DNA of 61,848 bases from contig MQRK01202286.1 in assembly GCA_001938485.1 (NCBI GenBank), positions 4,257-66,104 of the forward strand. The letters run 5' to 3'. Origin of the DNA: Girardia tigrina (lineage: Eukaryota). This document shows positions 7,361-61,848 of this stretch, piece by piece; the stretch's first letter is position 1; each line of letters starts with the position of its first letter. The position numbers and the translations under genes are program-made. The notes below the pieces were generated by a model. The model was not told where the DNA came from. It saw only the letters and a program-made list of their open reading frames with translations, and made no database searches.

Positions 7361-8735
7361 TAGGCTGTCCCAAAAATCCTCAGGTGGCCTTTATAAACAC
7401 ACTAATATTTTACCAAATTTAACCAAATTTGGACTGAATATTATTCAGACTGTCATAAATACTGTGTTAAAATTTCAAAGCATAAAATTTGAAACTTACC
7501 AAAAAAATAATATTATTAACCAACAAAAAAATTAGATGCAGCGAATTTAAAAATTTCTTTAAAAAAAATATTTTAAAAATTTCTTAAGCAACAACATATT
7601 CACCATGGTTGTCAATAACCAACTGACAATAGTTAAAATGTTTATCTAGTTGATTTTTTGATCTTTCTGTTGATAAAGAATTAAAAAAGAATTTACAAGC
7701 TTCTTCAATTTCTTCATGTGATTTGAAAACATGATTTTTAAAACTTTTCTTCATTTTTGAAAACAACAATCTGTCACACAGATTAAAATCTGGACTATAG
7801 GGCGATTGATGATTTTTTTCAATTTTTCTTATTTCAAGAAAAAAGAGTTGTTTCTTTGCTAGAATGAGGTCTTACATTATCATGCAACCACTTAAGTTCC
7901 TTTAGCTTGATGCTGTTAGATCTAAGTTTCCGCCATTTTTCACCGGTGTCGTGAACAAAGTTCACATACACCTTGGAATCAATCTTGGTACCATATGGCG
8001 GTGCTTTTACATTAAAACGTTTGTTGCAGGTAAAGGTTACGAAAACAAGAGATTTTTTATTTGTCATTGGCGATGGCTTTATCACTTTTAGTGGAACAGC
8101 ATTAGAAGGAATCAAAACTTTGTGATCTTCTTTCTTTCCTCTACCTTGGAAAAAGACCCATGTCTCATCCTCCATCGCTATGTTGGAATATGCTTCAATA
8201 CCCATCTGTGAAATTACATGACGTATAAGCTTTGCAGTGTTAATGCATTGTTGTTTATCAGCAGCAGAAAGTTCGTGAGGGACCCAAACAGAGCAAACTT
8301 TTTTGTAATGAAGTTTTTCACGCAAAATTTTGTGTACTGTATTTTTGCCTAAAGAAAGTTTATTTTCAATATAACACGAAGACGCATTTGGAGCTTCATC
8401 AATCACTTCTTTGACTGCTTTAATCTTTTCATCGTCTATTAATGACAGCCTGCCATTTCTTGATGAATCGTCGAAGGACGTCCGCTTTTCTTTTTTAAAA
8501 TCAGTCAACCATTGTTGAATAGTTTTCAACGCTGGGTGATTTGCGTCTTCCCATGCCTGCTGAAGTTGCTGAAGAATTTCTGAAGCAGAGAATCTTCTTT
8601 TACTTTGAATTAGAACAAAAAAACGTTGGTAACATTTATTTGGTTCCATTGTTAAAAACCGCTTGATTTGAATTCGCTGCACTTTTAATATTTCAATACT
8701 TTAATAAAACAAAATTTGAATAAAACAAAACTTGA
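7361..8735 (-). mobile_element. Divergent mariner (DD34D); transposase 7584-8649 with one frameshift; 5' TIR lost
   Basis: WVPHEL, EDETW, HDNVRPH and (after a shift in a homopolymer near 7842) SPYSPDFNLCD; 34 residues between the 2nd and 3rd D. Confidence 0.9.
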
Positions 8736-9464: not shown

Positions 9465-11335
9465 AGGTCTTGTATTAACGATGATGGACGTTTAAATGCC
9501 TTCAGCAATCTGTCGGAGAAATCTGAGATTTTGTAATCCACCGCTTCCTAAGTGGCAACCATATCTCTACTTATCAATGCCTTGACCATTGTCGCTTGGA
9601 TGGTATTAAGAACACCAACATGGGTTTTCAAACTTCTATTTTCAATACAATCAGAATTGTCTTTTGGACAATTCTCAACAAAACTTTCGTATTTCGACAT
9701 CGTTCTAAATTGATAATTTTTTGTTAATGTTTGTTAATAAACAATTATTCGAACAAATTTTTCATTATTTTCAGATTTTAGTTTTACAGTTCAAATTTGG
9801 TAATTTTAGTATTAATTTTATTTAAAAATATTTTATTTGAAGGAACATTTATTTAATTCAAAACTTAGTTAAAACTATTTATTTTATTTAAATTTTAATA
9901 TGAAAATTTGAAATGATTTAATATTTTTAATGTTTTTAAATATCTTATGCTGTACTTTAAAATGTAAATTATATTCGTTAAATTAAATTATAATCTATCG
10001 TGAACATCCAAAATATCAATTTTCCATCTGGATGGGAGAAACACATTTCCAAATACTAAACTCAACATACAAAATTCAACAAACCAATTCCAACATACCA
10101 AATTTAAAATATTCCTAACAGATGGCTTCATTGATTTGGGCGACTTCAAAAAATCTTCGACATTCGGATATAAAATCTTCAATATCCTGCGATCCATCGT
10201 AACTTTTTGGAGCCAGATTGCCTATAACACTGGCCATGGTCGCCATGTAAGAATTTTCCATCAATAATTAAAAAGTCAAAATAAATTGCAAAATTTATTC
10301 TTATTTAAAAAAGTGCGCGTTTTTGTTTATTTAAACAAAAATCATCAAGAGACTTAATTCAGAATATTTTGGATCCATTATTATAATATTGTGAATGTTA
10401 TCTTAGTATAGTAAAAATAATATAGAGATAAATATAGTTATTTATCCTTACAAATAATATTTTTACGTTTCTTGTAAAATTTTGTTATCTGGAAAATTCT
10501 AATTAATGTTGTTTAAATAATCGAAAATAAAAGTTGTCAGTTTTAAATTAAATATATGCTAGATTCTTTTGTTATGAGTGATTTGAGTGGAATGGAATTA
10601 TTTTTATCATAAGTTTTCAAGTCAAATGTAAAATCAGCGCCAATATTAAAAGGAAATGATATATCTGGAAATCGATATTATGAAATTCCGGCCCACATGG
10701 TTGGTAAAAATAGCAAACCGAAAAGATATATTGGAGAACCAGAAAATTTCACTGCATTTAAAATAAAAATTGTGTTGTCGGCTGGCACTTGTTTTCGCCA
10801 AACAATTGTGTCGCACGAGGATTTGCACGCTGTCGAATTTGTCGACAAAGAATTAACAATTGAATTTATCGAATCGGTTTTCGAAGACACAAACACTTCA
10901 TCGAAAGACATCACGAAATATTTCTCCGAATCGAGTTTCAATTTGTATTTATTTGAATTGATTGACGAGAATCGTTCGGATGAAATCGAATTAATTGAAT
11001 CGAAACTCAAAATTCTCAACTCGTTATCAAATCAACCCGCTAATTTCAATAATCTAATTGGATGCGCCAAACGAATAGCGGTTTATGTGCATTTCTTTTA
11101 ACCTGATTTTGAGTATCTAACGTGCAGCCTGGTATTTATTCAGAATTCTAAGCGAATCAAACAGTTCTATTCAGATTTGTTTCAAAAGATATCGGTAGAC
11201 ACTACGGATTATCACAATAACGATGAGAATGATCAGTCGATGGATTGCCCGTATGTCGGTGGTGGCGGTGGAAATAACGGTGTGAGATTCATGACGGGAA
11301 ACATTATTCGGTCTCTCTATTACCAGCACAAAAAG
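9465..11335 (+). pseudogene. Intron-containing fragment of an unidentified gene nested in intron 2 of the DUF1330-like gene
   Basis: Exon-like blocks with GT-AG borders (to ~10246|GTAAG; 10563-11080; 11144-11335) and in-frame stops (e.g. TAA 10610); first block is interrupted by a solo LTR. Confidence 0.5.
9604..10120 (-). mobile_element. Solo LTR, Gypsy family B
   Basis: Reverse strand TGTTAGGAATATTT...GTTCTTAATA; 5-bp TSD GATGG (9599-9603, 10121-10125); homologous to 25906-26367. Confidence 0.85.
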
Positions 11336-14425: not shown

Positions 14426-14654
14426 TTTGTCTTTCTATTGTTAACATGATTCAGTATTCAAGAATTATTCGAGTAAGAATTTTCAATCATATTAAAAAAT
14501 GAATTTTTATTTTCAAGAAAAATGTGTTAACGATGTTCCTAATATTTGGGGTGTGTGAGGAATATTTGGTGTGTTGATGTTTTTGTGTAGTGTTTGAATG
14601 TCGTGTGTTGATTTGGGATTGTGCCTCTCCTAATCAGATGGATGATTAATATTT
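14426..14654 (+). repeat. 229-bp direct copy of 18121-18349
   Basis: Appears identical to 18121-18349; covers 128 bp of flank plus the first ~100 bp of LTR A. Confidence 0.9.
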
Positions 14655-17205: not shown

Positions 17206-18248
17206 GTAGGGATTTGATTTATGTGATCTCGTTTTACAATAAATTATAAGGAAATAAGAGATTAATTAATTTGAAAGAGTTATTTTATTATATTATTTTA
17301 TTATTATATTAATGAAATTTATAATATAATTTTAAAGAAATAATTTATTTTTTTGTGGAAGAAATTGTTGTCTGGGAAATTATTTTTTTTAAATTTTAAA
17401 ACAAGATTAAAAAATTTTTTTCTTAAAATAATAATATTTTTTAAGTAAAAAAGTATAACTATGTCTAAAACAAAAAAATTAAAAGTAAAATTTTTTCATT
17501 ATAGAACTTATGTACATTAAAATTTGTACTTAAAGACGTCTCTGAAGTTTAAAAATTCAAAAATATTAATTTAATAATATATTATCAAAATAAAGCTATA
17601 AAAATAGTTTTAAAACAATTATTTAGACGTATTAAAATTAACTGAAATTATTAGATTATTGTCTTTTTTTAGTGTTTATATGTGAAAGGAATGATTGTGT
17701 AATCACTTACGTAAAATTAATTTCAAATGAGTTTAAAAACACATTTTAAGAGTTGGTAAAAGGGATATTGCTAACTAAAAAAATTGTATAACCGCACCAT
17801 AAATGGTTTCTTATTTATATGCAAGCATTTTAAAAATTATTTGGAGATAGTGACATATGAAGACATATTAATTTGTGAAGAAATTTGGATTAATAAAACA
17901 TAATTTAACAACAATCGCAGTTCAATGGACTTTAAAAGTTATTAAAAAATGTAACCGATAAATGTTCTATTTTAATTCTTTTGATTTTATGAAAAATATC
18001 ATTTCTTGACTAAATTATATCATATATGATTCGGTTAGGTAGGATTCTAATTAGGTTGAAATAAGTTAGGTTACAAATATCATTTTAAAATAATTGTTTT
18101 ATAAACAAGATAATTTAAATTTTGTCTTTCTATTGTTAACATGATTCAGTATTCAAGAATTATTCGAGTAAGAATTTTCAATCATATTAAAAAATGAATT
18201 TTTATTTTCAAGAAAAATGTGTTAACGATGTTCCTAATATTTGGGGTG

Positions 18249-18688
18249 TGTGAGGAATATTTGGTGTGTTGATGTTTTTGTGTAGTGTTTGAATGTCGTG
18301 TGTTGATTTGGGATTGTGCCTCTCCTAATCAGATGGATGATTAATATTTTAATTCTTATAGTCTGAAACTAATTTATTCAAATTCTTATTTTTTTTATTA
18401 TTGTAAATTTTAAATAATTTTATTGATTTTATTTTTGTTAATTTTTAAATAATCAAAATCAAATTAATGTTTAAAAATGGTTATAAAAAGTAATTTTATT
18501 TTATCCAAAAAAATTTAAATTAAATATTTTAAATAAAATAATTTTCTTCAAGTTAGTTCAGATTGGGATGAGAAGTATTAAACATTGAGTGATGGATTTA
18601 AGTGAGAGCAATACTAATGATTGTCATAGAGATGATCAAAATTGTGAATGTAATAAATGTTCTATCAAATGTGTGAGTTCTCTTAACA
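18249..18688 (+). mobile_element. LTR, Gypsy family A (no TSD; fused to a mariner)
   Basis: TGTGAGGAATATTT...GTTCTCTTAACA, colinear with 55630-56094 and 39654-40106. Confidence 0.85.
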
Positions 18689-24756: not shown

Positions 24757-24812
24757 GTGAGTTTATCATTTGCCACGTCGTAATATCTATCAATTACTCG
24801 TTAATATTGCAG

Positions 24813-25374
24813 ACAGTTCACGATTCACTACAAGTCGTTCGAAGACTCGGACCGAGCGAAAGTCGTCAACGAATCGCATTTGAATTATCTCTACTTGAAC
24901 AATGGCGGTAATTTCACCCACGATTTACTGACGAGTGACGATTCGCCGAACGGATTGATGCAGCTCGAGGCAACAGAGATCGGTCTCCGGCCGTACGATC
25001 AGCGCGTCAATCGATCATCGTCACCGCCGCCTGCATCGATCTGTTACTCGGACGGAGTCTCGTGTCACTCGAGCAACACGGGCGAGTCCCACTCCAGTTC
25101 CGGTCGTCCTTCGACCGCGTCCGCGCCCTCAAACCACGATCACGTGCAAACCGCCAAGAAACGCGAGAGGAATCGATTGGCGGCCGAGAAATGCCGCTTG
25201 AAGAAACAAGGGAAAATCGCCGAACTCGAAAACGAGAAACGGAAACGAATCCACGAGAATCAGATTCTGCTGGATAAAGTGCAAAAACGTAAAGAAACAC
25301 TCAAAAAGTTGAGAATTTTCTATGGGAAGTTGAAATCGGGAGAATTCAAACCGCAACCGTATTTTATGAATTGA
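24813..25374 (+). CDS. Jun/AP-1-like bZIP transcription factor, exon 2
   Basis: TTGCAG acceptor in frame with the ORF; basic region KRERNRLAAEKCRLKKQGKIAELE (c-Jun [24 protein letters not shown]); AATAAA downstream near 25519. Confidence 0.88.
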
Positions 25375-25905: not shown

Positions 25906-26367
25906 TTTTGGAAATGTGTTTCTCCCACTAAGATGGAAAATTGATATTTTGGATGTTCACGATAAATAATTATTCGAGTATAATTTGCATTTAAAAGTAC
26001 AGCATAAGATATTTAAAAACATTAAAAATATTAAATCGTTTCAAATTTTCATATTAAAAATTTAAATAAAGTAAATAACTTTTAACTAAGTTTTAAATTA
26101 AATAAATGTTCTTTCTTTCCATAAAATAATTTTTAAATAAAATTAATATGTAAATAAAAATTAATACTAAAACTACAAAATTGAATTTTAAAAATAAAAT
26201 CAGAAAATAATGAAAAAATTGTTCGATTAATTGTTTGTTAAAAAACATTAAAATTCATCAATTTAGAACGATGTCGAATTACGAAAGCTTTGCTGAGAGT
26301 TGTCCAAAAGACAATTCTAATTGTTTTGAAAATAAAAGTTCAAAAAGCCATGTTGGTGTTCTTAATA
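25906..26367 (+). mobile_element. 5'-truncated LTR, Gypsy family B
   Basis: Colinear with 9604-10050 (reverse); ends GTTCTTAATA. Confidence 0.8.
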
Positions 26368-39653: not shown

Positions 39654-40106
39654 TGTTAAGAGAACTCACACATTTGACAGAACATTTATTACATTCACAT
39701 TTCTTATCATCTTTATGATGATCAATAGTATTGCTTTCACTATAATCCATCACTCAATTTTCAATATCTCTCATTATAATCTGAATTATACTTGAGAAAA
39801 TTATTTTAATTAAAAATATTTAATTTAAATTTTATTGGCTTAAATAAAATATTTCTATAGTCATTTTTAGACATTAATTTGATTTTAATTATTTAAAAAT
39901 TAAAAAAAATAAAATCAATAAAATTATTTAAAAGTTGAAATAGTAAAAATTAAAAATTTGGATATTAAATCTAAAATTAAATAAATTAGTTTCAGATTAT
40001 AAGAATTAAAATATTGATCATCCATCTGGTTAGGAGAGGCACAATCCCAAATCAACACACAACATTTAAACATGCAAATACAAGTACACACCAAATATTC
40101 CTCACA
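39654..40106 (-). mobile_element. Solo LTR, Gypsy family A
   Basis: TG...CA termini; 5-bp TSD CTTAG (39649-39653, 40107-40111). Confidence 0.92.
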
Positions 40107-46601: not shown

Positions 46602-47848
46602 TTATGTCACGACACCTTTTCTATAAGGCATTCCTTGAGGAGCTGCTCTCCTTGGTGCCGTCGGACGAAGCAGCATTTGTCCACCAAAATTTGAAACGTG
46701 GACTCTTCGGAGAAGCAGACCTGTAAAATGATACCATAGTGTCAGGAGGTCTGTATGGTTGGTTATTGCTCTCCTGACTTCCCACTTCATTTTGCAAAAA
46801 ACGGATCAATTGGATTGAGAAATGGAGAATATGGAGGCAAATTTACCATTTCATGGTTGGAGAAAGTATTGAAGTGAATTTTCGCATTATCCTGGATTAA
46901 ACAATGCGGTGTCCCTGGCAGAATGCTCGATAAATCGTTTATGAACGATTGATATTTGGCATGATCCACACTGCCACAGTATAATTTAAATAGCAGGATA
47001 CCATTCCTGCCTATTGCCATAATGAGGGACATATTTTTCCCCCTGTTTGTTGGAATGACAATATTCACCGGAATGCCTTTCTTTGAACGACCGATTGGCG
47101 GTTGGTCCATAGATTGAATCCAATTTCATCAATGTAAACACATTACTCATTCGCCAATCTTCATTCATAAATCGGCAGGCATATTGAAATCTAAGATCCT
47201 TCACTCGATCTGAATTTCGTTCTTGGACGAAGCTCCTGATCTTCTTAACGGTTATTAATTTACCGGTGAGGAAGCGGGTAATTGTAGATTCCGATATATT
47301 GATTTCGCTGTTTTCCTCAATATACCTTTTCATCTCTCCCAACGTCGATTGCGGTTTCACCACCACATACCGAATGATCGTCTCGGCGATTTCGTCGGTA
47401 ATAATGGATTTCTTGTGGCCTCCATGTTTACCGACCGATATGAAACCGCATTTTTGATATTTGTATACGATGTTCTTGGCAGATGATTGGGATATATCGA
47501 GCTGCCTTGCCAGAGTCAAATAGTCCTCTGACATATTGTAGACTCTGACGAGTCTTTCTTTGTCTATTAGACTTATTCTGGAATAATTTTTTTATTTTAA
47601 TTTGAAATTGAAAATAAAAATTACGATTTTCGAGTTTTTTTATCCGACATGGTTCTGTTTTTGGCTGTCTTCGGAATCACCGCTATGATTATTTAATAAA
47701 ATATCATGATTGACAATAAAGTATCATATTTCAGTATCATCGGTACTGCTAACGGGGGATAAATTGTAATTTTGCATCATTTTGTAAATTTAAATTTTTT
47801 ACTCTTAAAGTTTGGATTCACTCTTAAATGCTGGCAAAACAGGTGTGT
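46602..47848 (-). mobile_element. IS630/Tc1-like transposon (frameshifted transposase)
   Basis: HTH N-terminus (ORF 46986-47534), FIDEIGFNL, LIQDNAKIH, LPPYSPFLNPID; putative 5' terminus near 47848. Confidence 0.85.
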
Positions 47849-51016: not shown

Positions 51017-51395
51017 TTAAGGCATAGCTGTGATTCTCTGTTCAAGATCGTTGAGTTCTTTGAGAATTTCTGCGGGTAAATCATCGTTTAGTTGTTCTTC
51101 GAAATACTTTCTGATTTCTTTCACTTCGGTTTGCCAAAATGGTTTGGAAATACTCAACACTTCTTCTAAATCGGCTTTTGTCATTTTCAACCCGCTAATA
51201 TTTATGTCATCAGGTTTCGGTAGTAATCCAATCGGTGTTTTTACAGCTTCCACCTCGTTACTTAATCTTCGTATTATCCATTCGAGTACTCGGCAATTAT
51301 CCCCAAAACCGGGCCAAAGAAATTCTCCCTTGGACGATTTTCGAAACCAATTGACATGGAATATCTTAGGAACTTTCGGATACTTTTTACCGAGG
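51017..51395 (-). CDS. PCK: Phosphoenolpyruvate carboxykinase (GTP), terminal exon
   Basis: PKIFHVNWFRK...FLWPGFGDNCRVLEWI...TPIGLLP...FWQTEVKEIRKYFEEQLNDDLP to stop; TTTAG acceptor at 51396-97; no upstream exon recognised in the window. Confidence 0.93.
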
Positions 51396-51475
51396 CTAAA
51401 CATACAAATAAATTAAATAAATTATTTTGCAAGACATAATTTAACAAAATTGATGACTTGATTTGAATCTATTTT

Positions 51476-53384: not shown

Positions 53385-56094
53385 TTGCAAAAATCAAAAT
53401 ATTGTCCAAATATACAACTGCCTCTTTCCAATTCAAGTGTCCTAAAACTTTGGCCATTAGTTCTTGGAAAGTTACTGGGCTGCTTCTATCGCGAAAGGCA
53501 TCTTTTTGAAACTATATTGTCCGTTCTTTGTCGAGAACGCTGTTTTAATCTTTAATTTTTCTTCCAACTCAACTTGGTAGTACGCCTTGCCAAGATTAAT
53601 TGTACTAAAATATTGCACACCATTCAGTGTGTTCAGCATATCATCTACATTTGGCATAGGAAACGCTGGTCTGACGGTAATTCTATTCAATTGGAGGAAG
53701 TCTAAACACACTCGAATATCTTGTTTTTCCTTCTTCCACACACATACTAAAGGGAAATTCCATGGTGAGCTACATGTTTCGATTATGTCATTTTCTTCGA
53801 AATTTTTAATAATATCATCCAATTGTTCTTCAAAGTGTTGACGTTGCCGATAAGGCTTTCCTAGTCTTGGATCCCCGTTTGTTTCTATTCTGTAATTTGT
53901 CAATGATGTTTTCCCGATATCCCACTTATCAGCCATGAATACTGATTTATAATATGTTAGAATCTTCATTCACCATTCAATTCACTTGTTAAATATTTCC
54001 ATTATTCTTTTTATTCTGTCGTCATCTGATGGGTTGTCTCTAATCACCAATATTTCTCCACCTCGAGGTTTTATTCCGAATTTATCCAAGAAATCTATAC
54101 CTGCGATCATTTCGGGGTCTAGTTCTTTGACCACATAAAACTCTATTAACTTTTGTGTTCCCTCAATAGCCACATTTAATTGAACGATTCCATGATTGAT
54201 CAGTTCTGAATCATTTGCGCAATGGATACGTTTCTTCCTTTCTCTTATTTTAATATTTTCATGTTTATAATTATCTCCGCTTTAATTACATTTACTCGGG
54301 CTCCGGTGTCCAAAATTTTCTATCTTTCACGTAAAAATCCACACTTGGACGTCCTTTCAGTTCTTTATAATTTATCTTAAACTTTAATATCTTCAATATT
54401 TCCGTTTTACAATTTAGTTTCTTATCATCTTGAGTTTTCATATTATTACACTGTTCTCGTTTTCCAATGTCTTCACAGTCAAGTTCGCAAATCTCTTGAG
54501 AATTATTTTCATACTTAAAATCAAACATACAATCACACACACACATTCATACATACAATCAAACATACATTTACATTGGTTTTCTTATGAAGCACACTCA
54601 TCACCTCTCCTTGTGATCCTGCTTCCTCGTTTCCCTATTCGTCTCCGAATCTTCTTTTACCTATAGAATAATTTCTTGTTGTATTCTCTTCTCTTCTATC
54701 AGAAATTACCGATCTCCTGTCCATTTCATCCTCCCTGTCGTCTAACTCCGCCAAATGTTGTTTCTTATTCATATATGCTGGTCGTTCTCTATATCTTTAA
54801 TTAGAATAATCTCTCCTGTCATTCCAACGATTTCTATTATTGTCCCATTTCCGTTGTTCACGTTCTTTAAACCTATTTGGGTTTTCATAACATTATGGTC
54901 GTAGATATCCTCTTCTTTGACAATGGTTACACTTAACATTCGGACATTCTCTTCTAACATGACCTTCCTCATGGCATGCCCAACAAATTATTTTTCTGAC
55001 TTTATAATTTCGATGTGTTCCTCCTTTCTTTACTTCTTCGTTCCGTGGTTTTGGTGTTCTTCTTTTATTCTCCACATTTTTCTTATTGTTTTCTTTTCTT
55101 GTCTTATATGCTGCTATTGGTGAGTTTCTTTTCTTTTTCCCGTATTCATACATCTTCATTTGTATGTTTTCGATCTCATATACCTTTGTTATCCCGTAAA
55201 TCGCTATCTCTTGATCGACGTTATCATCCTCAATCATAATAGCATAGACGAAGTTTGATAGTTTTTTCTTACCAAACTTTTTCTCCACTAATTTTTCGAC
55301 TATCTCATCTGCTTTGCGGAACGCAATTGACGGGTCACCGCAACCTACTCTTAACTCTATGAGATCTTTCATCAAATCCAAAATAGATTTTTCATTTGAA
55401 AATTCCGCTCGCATTTTCTCTTTGCAAGTACTCCCTGTGGCCTTCACGTACCTCAGAATCGCATCTGGAGTCAAGTAGGGTGTTATCAATAGGATTTTCC
55501 TCTCTTCTGATAATCCCATAATCTTTGAATACCTGTTAAAACTTATCAAGAATTCTTCTAATTTGTGCTCAGATCCATCAAATGTTTCAGGGCCTTTGAT
55601 GTTCGGAGTCACGTGGTGTGAAGTCACCATGTTAAGAGAACTCACACATTTGATACAACATTTATTACATTGACAAGTTTGATTATCTCTTTGACAATCA
55701 CTATTATCTCTCGCACTTAAATCTATCACTCAATGTTTAATAATTCTCATTACAATCTGAACTAACTTGAAGAAAATTATTTTACTTAAATTATTTAATT
55801 TAAATTTTATTGGCTAAAATAAAATTACTTTTTATAATCATTTTTAAAAATTAATTGGATTTTAACTATTTAAAAATTTACAAAAATAAAATCAATAAAA
55901 TTATTTAAAAGTTACAATAATAAAAATAAAAAATTTGAATATTAAATCTAAATTTAAATAAATTAATTTCAGACTATAAATATTAAAATAATAATCATCC
56001 ATCTGATTAGGAGAGGCACAATCCCAAATCAACACACAACATTTAAACATGCAAAAAATACACAAAAACATAAACACACCAAATATTCCTCACA
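53385..56094 (-). mobile_element. Ty3/Gypsy retrotransposon, 5' part (LTR, PBS, gag, protease, RT; truncated)
   Basis: LTR 55630-56094; PBS TGGTGAC; gag with CWACHEEGHVRREC; protease KILDTGARVN; RT SSPWNFPLVCVWKK...RVCLDF...KTAF...MPF...VVYLDNIL; frameshifts and stops. Confidence 0.93.
55630..56094 (-). repeat. 5' LTR of the Gypsy element (family A, 465 bp)
   Basis: TGTGAGG...CTTAACA, immediately followed by TGG. Confidence 0.9.
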
Positions 56095-56333: not shown

Positions 56334-56640
56334 GTTATCCACAGGGATAACTGGCTTGTGGCCACCAAGCGNNNNNNNNNNNNNNNNNNNNNNNNNNNNN
56401 NNNNNNNNNNNNNNNNNNNNNNNNNNNNNNNNNNNNNNNNNNNNNNNNNNNNNNNNNNNNNNNNNNNNNNNNNNNNNNNNNNNNNNNNNNNNNNNNNNNN
56501 NNNNNNNNNNNNNCTACTATATAAACCGTCATTACAATAGTAATTCTGTTCAGTACGAGAGGAACCACAGATTCGGATCACTGGTAAATGTGCTTGATCG
56601 AAAGGTCAGTGGCACGAAGCTACCATCCGAGAGATTAAGA
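56334..56640 (+). rRNA. Dispersed 28S rDNA fragment with the sarcin-ricin loop (gap inside)
   Basis: CCACAGGGATAACTGGCTTGTGGC..CCAAGCG and CAGTACGAGAGGAACC...CGAAGCTACCATC. Confidence 0.9.
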
Positions 56641-57270: not shown

Positions 57271-57615
57271 TCATCTAAACACGCTTAATAGGGTTTTCGA
57301 GAGACCCGTTTGCACATTAATCTTAGGATCTAAAGATCTGATATAAAGGGCTTCACAGGCCACCTTCTCCCAATAGTTTTTAAAACGAGAACACTGAATT
57401 TTAAAATCATTTATGTTTATGTTTTCATTCAACTTACAACCCTTTCTGTGTTCTGCAATATTACTCCCACCTACATGCCGACCATGTTCTTGGATTCTCT
57501 TACAAAGATGACGGGACGTCTCTCCAATGTATGTGGCATTACACCCATTACATGTAAATTTATATACGAGATCCGAACATAATCCAAATGGGGTTGGAGA
57601 TTTATTACAAAACAC
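57271..57615 (-). mobile_element. Penelope GIY-YIG endonuclease domain
   Basis: LVYKFTCNGCNATYIGETSRHLCKRIQEH...EALYIRSLDPKINVQ. Confidence 0.9.
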
Positions 57616-60600
57616 ATTTTGGATTTTATATGTTTGTGATATTATTTTTAAATTAAAGGCATTATTTAATGGCGTGTTTTTGTTTTTAAATATGATATTT
57701 TATTTTTTTATTTTATCTTGATGTAACCAGGTGATTGATATATTTTTCGATTAAAAAGAAAATAAAACGTGATATTATTTTTAAAATATATATTTTTTAT
57801 TCACAGTTTACAATTACAATATTAAAACGAAGATTAAAAGCCTTAACCTTACTTTCTGAATTTATATTTTGAATAGTTAGAGAAGTAGATTCTACTTACC
57901 CTAAGTGATTTTAAGTATATAAAAATATAAAAAATATATATTTCGTAATTTGGATCCAACACTTCAAAATTTTATGCAGTGTGAGGGATAATGTAGAATG
58001 TTGTAAGTTTGTTGTTTGTATACTGTTTTGATCTGTGACTCTCTTACTCAGATGGGATTGATATGTTATTTGAATGATTATTTGAATTTAATGATATTAA
58101 TTTTAAGTACTAATTAATTAAAGTTTTATAATTATGAATTTTAATAATATTTTTAGTAAACGATTTTAACTTATTAAATTTAATATATTTTAAAAATTAA
58201 TGTTCATTTAAAAAATTACGTAATGCCCTTTTATCCAGTAAAATTTAAGAAATTGAAAATTAATATTAAAAACTTTCCCATTCATTGTTTTTTTAGATTT
58301 GAATACTTAAACAAAAAACTATATCAATCAAAGAAAGATGATTGTTTACATTCAAATTGTGATGTTGTTAATATGCAGAAAGTAAAATTCGAAGAAAGAT
58401 CGTGGTTTCAAACATTCCTTATGTTGATGAATGGTGAAACCATTAGAAGAAAAAAGAAATATGTGGTTTTTAACGAAAAACTAATAGCTGATTTAATAGA
58501 CCGAGCCAATAGAAATCCAGAAACATATACTTTGGAATTAGTAGGTTTTATTTATTATTAATAAATCTTTTTCGACGTTTTTATTTTTAATGTCTTTATT
58601 ACATCATAAATTTTCGACGTTTTATTTTTCGGTGTTTTAACGTGCCACGAAAAATTTACAGATATGAGCAAGTTAGCAGCGACAGTTGACAGAAAAACAA
58701 TCTTAAAAATTCAAATGAATTGTGATCAACATTCAACTGTCAATATGTTATTAGTATTTGTTTATGGTTGACTGAGTCAATTATTTCGCTTCGACTCGCT
58801 ACCGCCGGTAAAAAAAACACCAGACGAGTCACCGTAGATGAAAGTCGCACGGCGTCGGTGTCTGATTACAAAATACAAACGTTTACGTTACTAGCGACAG
58901 CGTGACTGACAGTGAAATGAAAAATAAGCCAAAATACTTACAGATTCTAAGAAATTAATTGACGGTTAAATTCGCAAATTGAAATACGACTCTAGAACAC
59001 TCGTCGATGCTTCGGGACTCTTAATGTGACTGCCTATGGACCTTAATTGTGCTTAATTCGGCACTACTTTCACTTCGGTTATATTAAGTGAAAAAACAAA
59101 ATGTAACTTTTTACTATTTTCAAAATATAAACGTTAAAATTTTCATGTTTATTGTTTTGATTTGTTCCTTTAAAGTTGGGAAACGCTGTAATAATATGTA
59201 GATATGTTAGTTAAATCATTTTAGTAATATTCTCAATCTTAAATTGTATGATATGTATAAAAAACACATTTTATAGTAATTGACATTAATTTAAATTTTA
59301 AAAAATAACAATAACTAATTGAAAAAACAAAATTCACAGAATTATGTTCAGAAAAAGTATAATTCTTCTTATTTTTCACGTAAATATTCTCTATATTAAT
59401 TGTTTTTCAATGATTCTTCAACAAATACTAAAACGTCAAAATTCAGTTTTATATTTACGAAACAATTTTGGCACATCTTCAATAAATGAAAATAAATCAT
59501 TTCAGTTTACAGAAAATTGGTTTTGATACATAAAATAATTTAAATTAAACGAAAAATCAAGCTTAAATTAATAATTCGCAGAAAGAAGAAACGAAACGAA
59601 AATAAATTAATTTTTTCAAATTAAAAAATTTAAATTAATTAATTAAAAAAATAATTTTATAATAATTATCAATTTCAATAATGATTTTTTGTAAATTTGT
59701 AAGCCAATCGTTGACATTACTGGTCACAAGTAATGATTCATAATATCCGCTATAGCTGTCTGAAATCGACATCGTCAAACACTGACACCCACGCGTTGCG
59801 TGCGGAGGTGTAATAGCACACACCGAACACTGGAGTGTGTATGTGTGTGTCGGCAACTACATAAAAATGATGTATAGCTATTCGTTACCAAATGAATGCG
59901 GCGTCACACACACACAAACACACATTTTATCATTAATGAATTTCTCTAATCAATATTAGCTTTATTTGAAAATTATGTTTAAAATATGATTTTAAAGTAC
60001 ATTATTATTATTATTATTTTGTTATTTGTTATCTGTTATTGGCATTTTCTTTGATTAAAATTTAATTAGAAAAAAATTTCAATTAATTTTTTTATCTTTT
60101 AAATTAAAATAATTACTTTTAAAATTTTTATCTTACTGAATTATTCATATTAAGATCTACACACACAATTTTAAATTAAAGATTAAAAAAATATTTTTTT
60201 AATGAAATTCAAATTGAATACTAAAATAATGAATCTTTCGATATTTGTTCTGGCAATAATTGGCAACGTTGATCTTTCGAAACCTTTCCAGCAGTACTAA
60301 ATACTCTTTCAGATGGAACGCTACTTGGTTCGAAGGTAGATAAATATTAACTAATTTTTAAAAATTTGGGAAGCAGATGCTGCTTATGTTCCACCATTCA
60401 ATTAGAGTTTCCAGTCGATGGATCTCATTTTCATATAACGAAGATTCTGCTTCACAATCAACAGTAAATGATGGGATTGGAGTGGCAAAAACTATAAAAT
60501 TCAAAGACATGAACTAACTAACATATTAAAGTTTTATTCATTTTCAGGCTTTAAAAACTTTGATTCATTTTATAATAACATGTTAATCAGCTTCTTCAAG

Positions 60601-60974: not shown

Positions 60975-61848
60975 GTTTTTGGACACAAACTTCAAAGACG
61001 TGCAAATTCACAGAAACAAAAGTTTATTATTAAGTATAAACCGTTGGCATCAATACATTTTTGCCAACGAGAAACAAGTTCTTTTATTCCATCAGCATAA
61101 AATGCATCGGTTCTCAAAGCGACGAAATCTTGGAAGGCATTTTGAGCATCATTTTGGTTTTTGAAATTTTTTTCACGTAGGAAGTTGTACAAATACCTGA
61201 AAAAGTAGAAGTCCGTTGGCGAGAGGTCTGGTGAATATGGTGGATGAAGAAGGGTTTCATAGCCCAACTCATTAAGTTTTTGAAGAGTTACTTTTGAAAT
61301 ATGAGGTCTAGCGTTATCATGAAGAAGGATGGGACTTTTTCGACTGACTAATCCCGGACAAAGGGTTTTCAATTTTTTATGCATTTCATCAATTTCATGA
61401 CAGTACCTCTCCGCTGTGATTGTTTCACCTGGATTCAAGAAGCTATAGTGGATGATTCTAGCATCACACCACCAAACTGTCACCATAACCTTACGGGGTG
61501 TTAGTTTCGGTTTTGGAAACTGTTTCGGTACTTCATCTTTGTCCAACCGCTGTGCAGATCGACGTCGGTTATCATACAGGATCCATTTCTTATCACAGGT
61601 AATAATACAATCAAGAAATGGATCATTTTTATTGCGAAGATGATTGGCAGAACAAATTTCATAGCGTCGGTTCTTTTGATTTTCATTCAAATCATGTGGA
61701 ACCCATTTATAAAGTTTATTGATTTTTCAAAGTTGTTTTAAATGATCCAGGACTGTTGAATGACTAATGCCCAACCCATCTGCAAGTTCTCTGATTGTTG
61801 TACGGGGATCTGTTTCCACCATTGTCCTCAAATTGTTGTTGTTCACAG
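60975..61848 (-). mobile_element. Mariner (DD34D, Hsmar1/SETMAR-like) transposase pseudogene, runs off the window
   Basis: WVPHDL, ITCDKKWILYDN, HDNARPH, HPPYSPDLSPTDF; in-frame TGA upstream of WVPH. Confidence 0.93.

Follow-up and report, generated by a model that had tools for sequence, protein, structure and literature searches.

The gag frame of a Ty3/gypsy-type element in Girardia tigrina opens inside the LTR and extends across a predicted poly(A) signal and the tRNA-Arg primer-binding site

INTRODUCTION

In the yeast element Ty1 the GAG start lies inside the LTR. The locus described here raises the question of whether Gag begins in the same way in a retrotransposon of Girardia tigrina, where the last part of the LTR can be read as a 32-codon frame that continues into gag, and, if so, whether it is the residues of this leader or only its start codon and frame that are kept. 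Positions refer to the window, i.e. the whole 61,848-nt stretch of DNA that was analysed.

RESULTS

LTR copies in the window

Comparison of the window with itself gives five LTR 3' ends, all of which retain the 32-codon frame, as the original prediction had stated. The first codons, at 18592 (+), 39750 (-), 55726 (-), 9700 (-) and 26271 (+), each lie exactly 96 nt upstream of the final LTR base (18688, 39654, 55630, 9604 and 26367, respectively) and read ATG or, at 55726, ATA. The leader peptides match those given earlier (by program for 55726, by eye for 18592, 9700 and 26271). LTR limits were set by 5-bp target duplications of two copies (39654-40106 and 9604-10120) together with two-LTR copies elsewhere; the parts of the element are collected in Table 1.

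In the copy whose LTR ends at 55630 (-) the frame crosses the LTR end and the primer site and enters a gag with a zinc knuckle. The copy is decayed, with ATA as first codon, premature stops in gag, whose remnants go on to about 54580, and a broken pol. One of the pol pieces within 53472..54546 (-) we take, by sequence likeness, to be protease. No 3' LTR of this copy was found in the window.

Table 1. Parts of the element and its LTR copies in the window
Feature	Position	Strand	Basis
5' LTR, family A, 465 bp, TGTGAGG...TTAACA	55630..56094	-	self-comparison and LTR boundaries
32-codon gag leader within LTR, first codon ATA	55631..55726	-	translation
AATAAA, predicted poly(A) signal, coded as Asn-Lys	55661..55666	-	predicted function
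Junction ATG (last LTR base plus TG of primer site), possible second start	55628..55630	-	
Primer-binding site for tRNA-Arg(ACG), extended, bulged, in gag frame	55601..55629	-	
gag, open part: capsid and first zinc knuckle, ended by premature stop	54893..55630	-	
pol pieces, broken: RT fragment (RVT_1, E 1.4e-6) and presumed protease region	53472..54546	-	
Family A LTR, ATG 18592; frame stops 1 codon into flank	18249..18688	+	
Family A solo LTR, target duplication CTAAG, ATG 39750; frame stops 10 codons into flank	39654..40106	-	
Family B solo LTR, ends TA, target duplication CCATC, ATG 9700; AATAGA replaces AATAAA	9604..10120	-	
Family B LTR without 5' start, ATG 26271; frame stops 17 codons into flank	25907..26367	+	
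Family A LTR 5' fragment, without leader	14554..14654	+	self-comparison

Several other features of the window should be mentioned. An exact 229-bp duplication (14426-14654 and 18121-18349) takes in an LTR start. Rfam reports a large-subunit rRNA fragment at 1-1089, and the region at about 56340-56640, which Rfam did not report, is presumably another such piece. Pfam detects a C-terminal piece of PEPCK (51017-51412), a GIY-YIG nuclease piece (57271-57699) and a bZIP frame (24805-25374), while frames at 7834-8700, 60992-61726, 46986-47591 and 1008-1523 are, by resemblance, presumably remnants of mariner/Tc1 and hAT transposases.

The element and its families

Copies are numerous: a search of the 1.43-Gb genome gave 3547 first-look candidate matches. 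Two-LTR copies measure about 5.0-5.3 kb. Their LTRs, about 410-530 bp long, are 91-97% identical within a pair; the copies have 5-bp target duplications and a polypurine tract, GAGGGGGA, preceding the 3' LTR. The gag of about 380 codons carries two CCHC knuckles, present in all five family gags; pol overlaps it in the -1 frame, and RT-RNase H precedes integrase, as judged from the frame order in locus L068 and the domains of close relatives. The best solved relative of the RT is Ty3 (E 7e-64). Close relatives of this RT are metagenome proteins with up to 93% identity, and no named reference element is among the close hits. Capsid fold matches are weak (dArc and Ty3 capsids, E 0.007-0.03, none under 0.001). 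The element is a Ty3/gypsy element of unplaced lineage; its layout resembles that of Ty1, but it is not Ty1/copia.

All five gag families taken from the protein database (P0002-P0006) were recovered in the genome, plus two further ones, F and G. Families A to G have an in-frame ATG within the LTR, with leaders of 32, 32, 32, 32, 31, 22 and 26 codons, respectively, and in other, short-leader families the leader takes 7-13 codons. The 32-codon length that had been called conserved is therefore not kept in E, G and F (31, 26 and 22 codons), and in the wider group leaders span 3-38 residues. Leader DNA of families A and B is 49% identical, so that the families, first described as sharing little DNA similarity here, are homologous rather than unrelated. 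LTRs end in CA in family A and in TA in families B-G; the TG...TA form (e.g. window 9604-10120) is confirmed by target duplication, AAT and AAC both being Asn codons.

After duplicate removal, 66 junction copies of family A, 49 of B, 22 of C, 15 of D, 30 of E and 22 of F were analysed. They are a small part of the hits listed, and N-containing or non-homologous regions were dropped per test, so that n varies. Queries for A, D and E included the leader; B, C and F copies were found essentially with the gag body alone.

Three structural observations belong here. At L255:1-9133 a 4480-bp element occurs twice head to tail with one LTR shared per unit, which may reflect a one-LTR circle, a tandem or an assembly effect. 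At L061 (771-1267 and 5540-6037) both LTRs have a common foreign 3' end, with a primer site of the tRNA-copied type. Finally, the LTRs of A, B, D, E and F, and also of C, share a conserved TCTCC...CAGATGG block, located in the first five at 74-95 nt from the LTR start; it resembles an E-box and may be part of the promoter.

The primer is tRNA-Arg(ACG)

In 93 cases a genomic LTR end is followed by an exact 16-nt tRNA-Arg complement including CCA, against 0 in the control. Among 54 such LTR-tRNA products assigned to families A-F, 26 copy 18 nt of the tRNA (the mode), the stop expected for plus-strand copying of a primer, and one copies the whole 76-nt tRNA. The tRNA-Arg(ACG) genes themselves form tandem arrays and lack CCA; at L368 and L369 the array has a period of about 429 bp, and one copy has the anticodon GCG. 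Longer tRNA-Arg copies of 36-39 nt follow LTR ends at L354-L357, L359 and L360, and at L244:250-425 an LTR end is followed by the whole 76-nt tRNA-Arg with CCA. These longer copies are likely dead-end reverse transcripts that got inserted. A reading of the GCG anticodon in L244 as inosine read-out was dropped, since a genomic gene copy has GCG too.

The normal primer site pairs with the tRNA, with a bulge, out to the T-loop, and this duplex beats shuffled sequences in 5/6 families (shuffle fraction 0.006-0.02 in five families, 0.11 in family E). The primer site of the 55630 copy, TGGTGAC, is a minority form: among the top patterns of family A, TGGCGAC counts 26 versus 8. A tRNA-Trp primer, suggested by the window's TGGTGAC, is out for this reason. 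A bipartite, Ty3-like primer site involving the CAGATGG motif near the LTR start was rejected once the real primer was found, with 0 matching tRNA ends in the genome.

Start codon and open frame are retained

The in-LTR ATG is retained in 53/62 copies of family A, 39/42 of B, 16/18 of C and 25/30 of E, about as often as the junction ATG (56, 40, 17 and 26 of the same copies), and the leader frame is open and in phase in 55/62, 35/42, 16/18 and 23/30. Between families A-F, whose leaders have 49-72% DNA identity, length differences are always multiples of 3 (96, 96, 96, 96, 93 and 66 nt). Under neutrality, retention of ATG, open frame and 3n lengths across these families has P about 3e-5 in an analytic model along the minimum spanning tree of the families, and a shuffled LTR end yields an open, ATG-started in-frame leader of at least 22 codons with P 0.055-0.068 per family. 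By these two calculations the leader frame is beyond chance, and the first of them suggests that Gag likely starts in the LTR. Tests confined to the leader were not significant: shared changes creating a stop number 0/45 versus 12/166 singletons (p=0.07), and shared frameshifts 0 versus 16 in the upstream LTR (p=0.36 against rare indels).

Leaders occur well beyond these families. A profile search gave 71 further gag matches (E up to about 1e-10), of which 21 were removed because of length or missing knuckle; among the remaining 50, 37 have a leader before the junction Met, 7 start at it and 6 are without the motif. Where the junction Met is recognisable, a leader is thus present in 37/44 and the gag is called from the junction Met in 7/44. 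In a hand-picked set of full-length distant gags 36/42 carry a leader, of 3-38 residues, and in 32 of these Asn is the last residue. It should be noted that these are protein records without DNA context and that gene callers may use non-ATG starts, since they can write GTG or TTG starts as Met. A true in-LTR ATG is seen in the DNA of L255 (13 codons), in 8/12 loci of other small families and in 7/10 family-G loci, the last two sets having been chosen only by their tRNA copy. Across the group in-LTR ATGs thus recur at many different distances.

Of the metagenome loci, 2/79 (L255 and L321) belong to this group by identity, and the gag junction is present only in L255; no member of the group was found in the viral contigs searched. 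RNA contig sets X5 and X6 contain the element, but among the pieces listed, all contigs, none joins the LTR ATG to gag, and the loose ends listed include no poly(A) tail. Truncated LTR-tRNA products have 20 non-edge breakpoints, scattered from -60 to +357 with no clustering at one place; two of them (L244 and L391) map 8 and 14 nt ahead of the ATG, too few to be informative. Family A has a further in-frame ATG with a 6-codon frame just upstream of the leader (position 344 of 464). In many copies of this family, including the one at 55733-55750 (-) of the window, a 6-codon frame in the same phase as the leader stops two codons short of it.

No selection is seen on the leader residues

Shared variants, defined as those present in at least 10% of copies and in no fewer than 3, are taken to have passed through active lineages; they were compared with singletons, which are mostly post-insertion decay, with families A, B, C and E pooled. 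In the gag body the shared N/S ratio is 57/64 versus 770/227 for singletons (OR 0.26, p=2e-11), and for the first 30 codons past the primer core OR is 0.12. In the leader, from codon 2 to the fifth from the end, the ratios are 36/9 and 138/28 (OR 0.81, p=0.66), which resembles non-coding LTR windows, and the change rate equals that of the upstream LTR (45 shared changes per 321 nt versus 52 per 384 nt). Frame +1 of the leader gave OR 0.41 (p=0.024), which was treated as multiple-testing noise. The proposed protein-level selection on the leader is therefore not borne out. AlphaFold gives no confident structure for residues 1-36 (pLDDT 42-49), with capsid helices from residue 56. Since no signal is seen at the amino-acid level while ATG, frame and 3n lengths persist at 49-72% identity, it appears that start codon and frame are kept by selection and the residues of the tail are not.

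An untranslated region would give the same absence of dN/dS signal, and the leader could then be a relic, held open by nucleic-acid constraints, with Gag starting at the junction ATG made by the LTR end and the primer site. The junction Met is indeed invariant in 48/48 aligned gags and its ATG has A at -3 and G at +4; moreover, the capsid fold begins downstream of it in the AlphaFold model. Yet ATG, frame and 3n lengths persist in a leader that otherwise changes at the rate of the upstream LTR, we found no notable RNA fold over the leader (z -0.92), and the variable distances of in-LTR ATGs across the group also argue against such a relic. We regard this alternative as unlikely and favor a Gag that starts inside the LTR.

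Likely nucleic-acid signals read as codons

The Asn-Lys of the leader is encoded by AATAAA, which in all families A-G lies 37-40 nt upstream of the LTR end. It is found at -37 (-40 in E) in 55/64, 42/46, 17/20, 15/15, 29/30 and 20/21 copies of families A-F, respectively (85-100%), and at -37 in all 10 family-G loci; a family-E LTR that was examined has a single AATAAA. In short-leader families the motif lies upstream of the ATG, at -35 to -49 in 5 loci and at -77 in one more, which indicates a role at the nucleic-acid level. In most families AATAAA is followed by CA and a GU-rich tract, the usual layout of a poly(A) site. If AATAAA is the poly(A) signal, the leader, which had been placed in U5, is probably mostly R, with a U5 of only about 20 nt. 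The final Asn of the leader is the LTR end itself, AAC or AAT giving CA or TA ends, and MAT(TP) after the LTR end is the primer site, the tRNA-Arg complement translating to MATTPG in the gag frame. In the same way (V/I)xV(L/V)N corresponds to the GU-rich tract plus the integrase end, so the conserved residues are likely by-products of signals that occupy the same bases.

As to the cysteines, seven representative leaders contain 25 Cys against about 6 under base shuffle, TGY is in frame in 25/46 cases (p=0.003, with families that are not independent), 7/7 families have the Cys of C-x-x-N-K, and Cys columns carry shared variants less often than others (3/26 versus 31/125, p=0.20). A Cys-containing leader selected in A-G as a protein module, for metal binding or lipid attachment, would be compatible with a Gag start in the LTR and would add to it. 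In contrast, dinucleotide shuffling already expects 14.7 Cys, and family D is the one family to fall below p=0.05 on its own. The invariant Cys sits 9 nt before AATAAA in all seven families; in every one of them nearly all copies use TGT for it, and TGC never occurs as a shared variant, which looks like a nucleotide motif. The spacing of Cys varies, no dN/dS signal is seen in the leader, and only 3/36 distant leaders have Cys at all (3 among 538 residues). The Cys-containing leader of the original prediction thus holds for A-G, where Cys is enriched and one is invariant, and fails in the wider group. Cys richness is local to A-G, and TG-rich DNA accounts for most of it. The cysteines may have a local function; a selected module seems to us rather improbable, if marginally less so than an untranslated leader.

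Solo LTRs do not appear as fusion donors

Each solo LTR had also been thought to supply a promoter and a start codon that fuse the leader to host sequence. In most copies the frame stays open right up to the final base of the LTR, and the candidate matches (3547) run to thousands. On the other hand, the predicted poly(A) site lies inside the leader, and at 28/36 LTR ends without recognisable primer site the read-through is 1-34 codons long (1, 10 and 17 in the window). The six longest read-through frames of these 36 ends are gag-linked copies with altered primer sites, and the other two have 55 and 80 codons. No host fusion was found among the fetched loci, where unspliced frames were considered. 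We therefore hold fusion cassettes to be very improbable, far more so than the other alternatives.

DISCUSSION

It is likely, judging from sequence, that in this Ty3/gypsy element Gag starts at the in-LTR ATG, the gag frame opening there and reading on across the predicted poly(A) signal, then the LTR end and finally the tRNA-Arg site; a Gag start in the LTR, as in Ty1, is the supported part of the original interpretation. The frame, the retention of its ATG, the identity of the primer, the position of AATAAA and the absence of an amino-acid-level signal are direct observations, and the following course of events would fit them. Transcription would begin upstream of the LTR ATG, and scanning ribosomes would initiate Gag at this codon. 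The N-terminal tail of Gag, predicted to be disordered, would span the poly(A) signal, the LTR end and the primer site before the capsid. AATAAA would act as the poly(A) signal, tRNA-Arg(ACG) would prime on a site that is also coding, and the junction ATG, being in good context, may yield a second, shorter Gag.

A bolder version can be imagined, in which one stretch of ~130 nt is at once R repeat, poly(A) signal, integrase end, primer site and the first 40 Gag codons, with two starts giving a short Gag and a long one whose Cys-rich tail is functional. As no stop interrupts the leader frame ahead of the poly(A) site, short transcripts of the many solo LTRs would in that reading be stop-less messages and would be destroyed by the cell. 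We consider this combination doubtful, slightly more so than an untranslated leader.

In Ty1 of Saccharomyces cerevisiae, by the account in (PMC4974528), the primer site lies in the GAG ORF and tRNA pairing extends to the T-arm. Here too the primer site is within the gag frame and tRNA pairing is extended. Unlike in Ty1/copia, where integrase comes before RT, the RT is of gypsy type and precedes integrase. Further differences from Ty1 are the primer, tRNA-Arg(ACG) instead of initiator tRNA, the pol in the -1 frame and, in families A-G, an ATG upstream of the predicted poly(A) signal, with the signal itself read as codons. Ty3 is resembled in RT, weakly in capsid (E 0.007-0.02), in a length of about 5 kb and in two overlapping ORFs. 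Its primer site, as described in the same source, adjoins the 5' UTR, with other parts at the RNA 3' end (PMC4974528), whereas here it lies within gag. Mdg1 uses tRNA-Arg according to Table 1 of (PMC3286476), as this element does, while the Culex Mdg1 element described there has 6.6-8.5 kb and 4-bp duplications (PMC3286476) against about 5.0-5.3 kb and 5 bp here. Mag elements are closer in size and target duplication (4-5 kb, mostly 5 bp, one with tRNA-Arg), but have shorter LTRs and, in that description, mostly tRNA-Ser or -Leu primers (PMC3286476); this comparison is by published description. Microsporidian Ty3/gypsy groups are likewise unplaced, but are described with a single polyprotein (PMC4202319), whereas gag and pol are separate frames here. 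No account of this layout in Gypsy elements turned up in the literature searched, which covers few subscription papers and neither Repbase nor GyDB; a printed description may therefore exist.

The layout known from Ty1, with gag overlapping the LTR and the primer site, occurs across a wide Ty3/gypsy group too, and it goes further than in Ty1, since here even the predicted poly(A) signal is read as codons, for Asn-Lys. Annotations that let gag begin past the primer site would leave out its N-terminus. What looks like a peptide motif at an LTR end can be a translated cis-signal, and genomic LTR-tRNA products reveal the primer directly from sequence.
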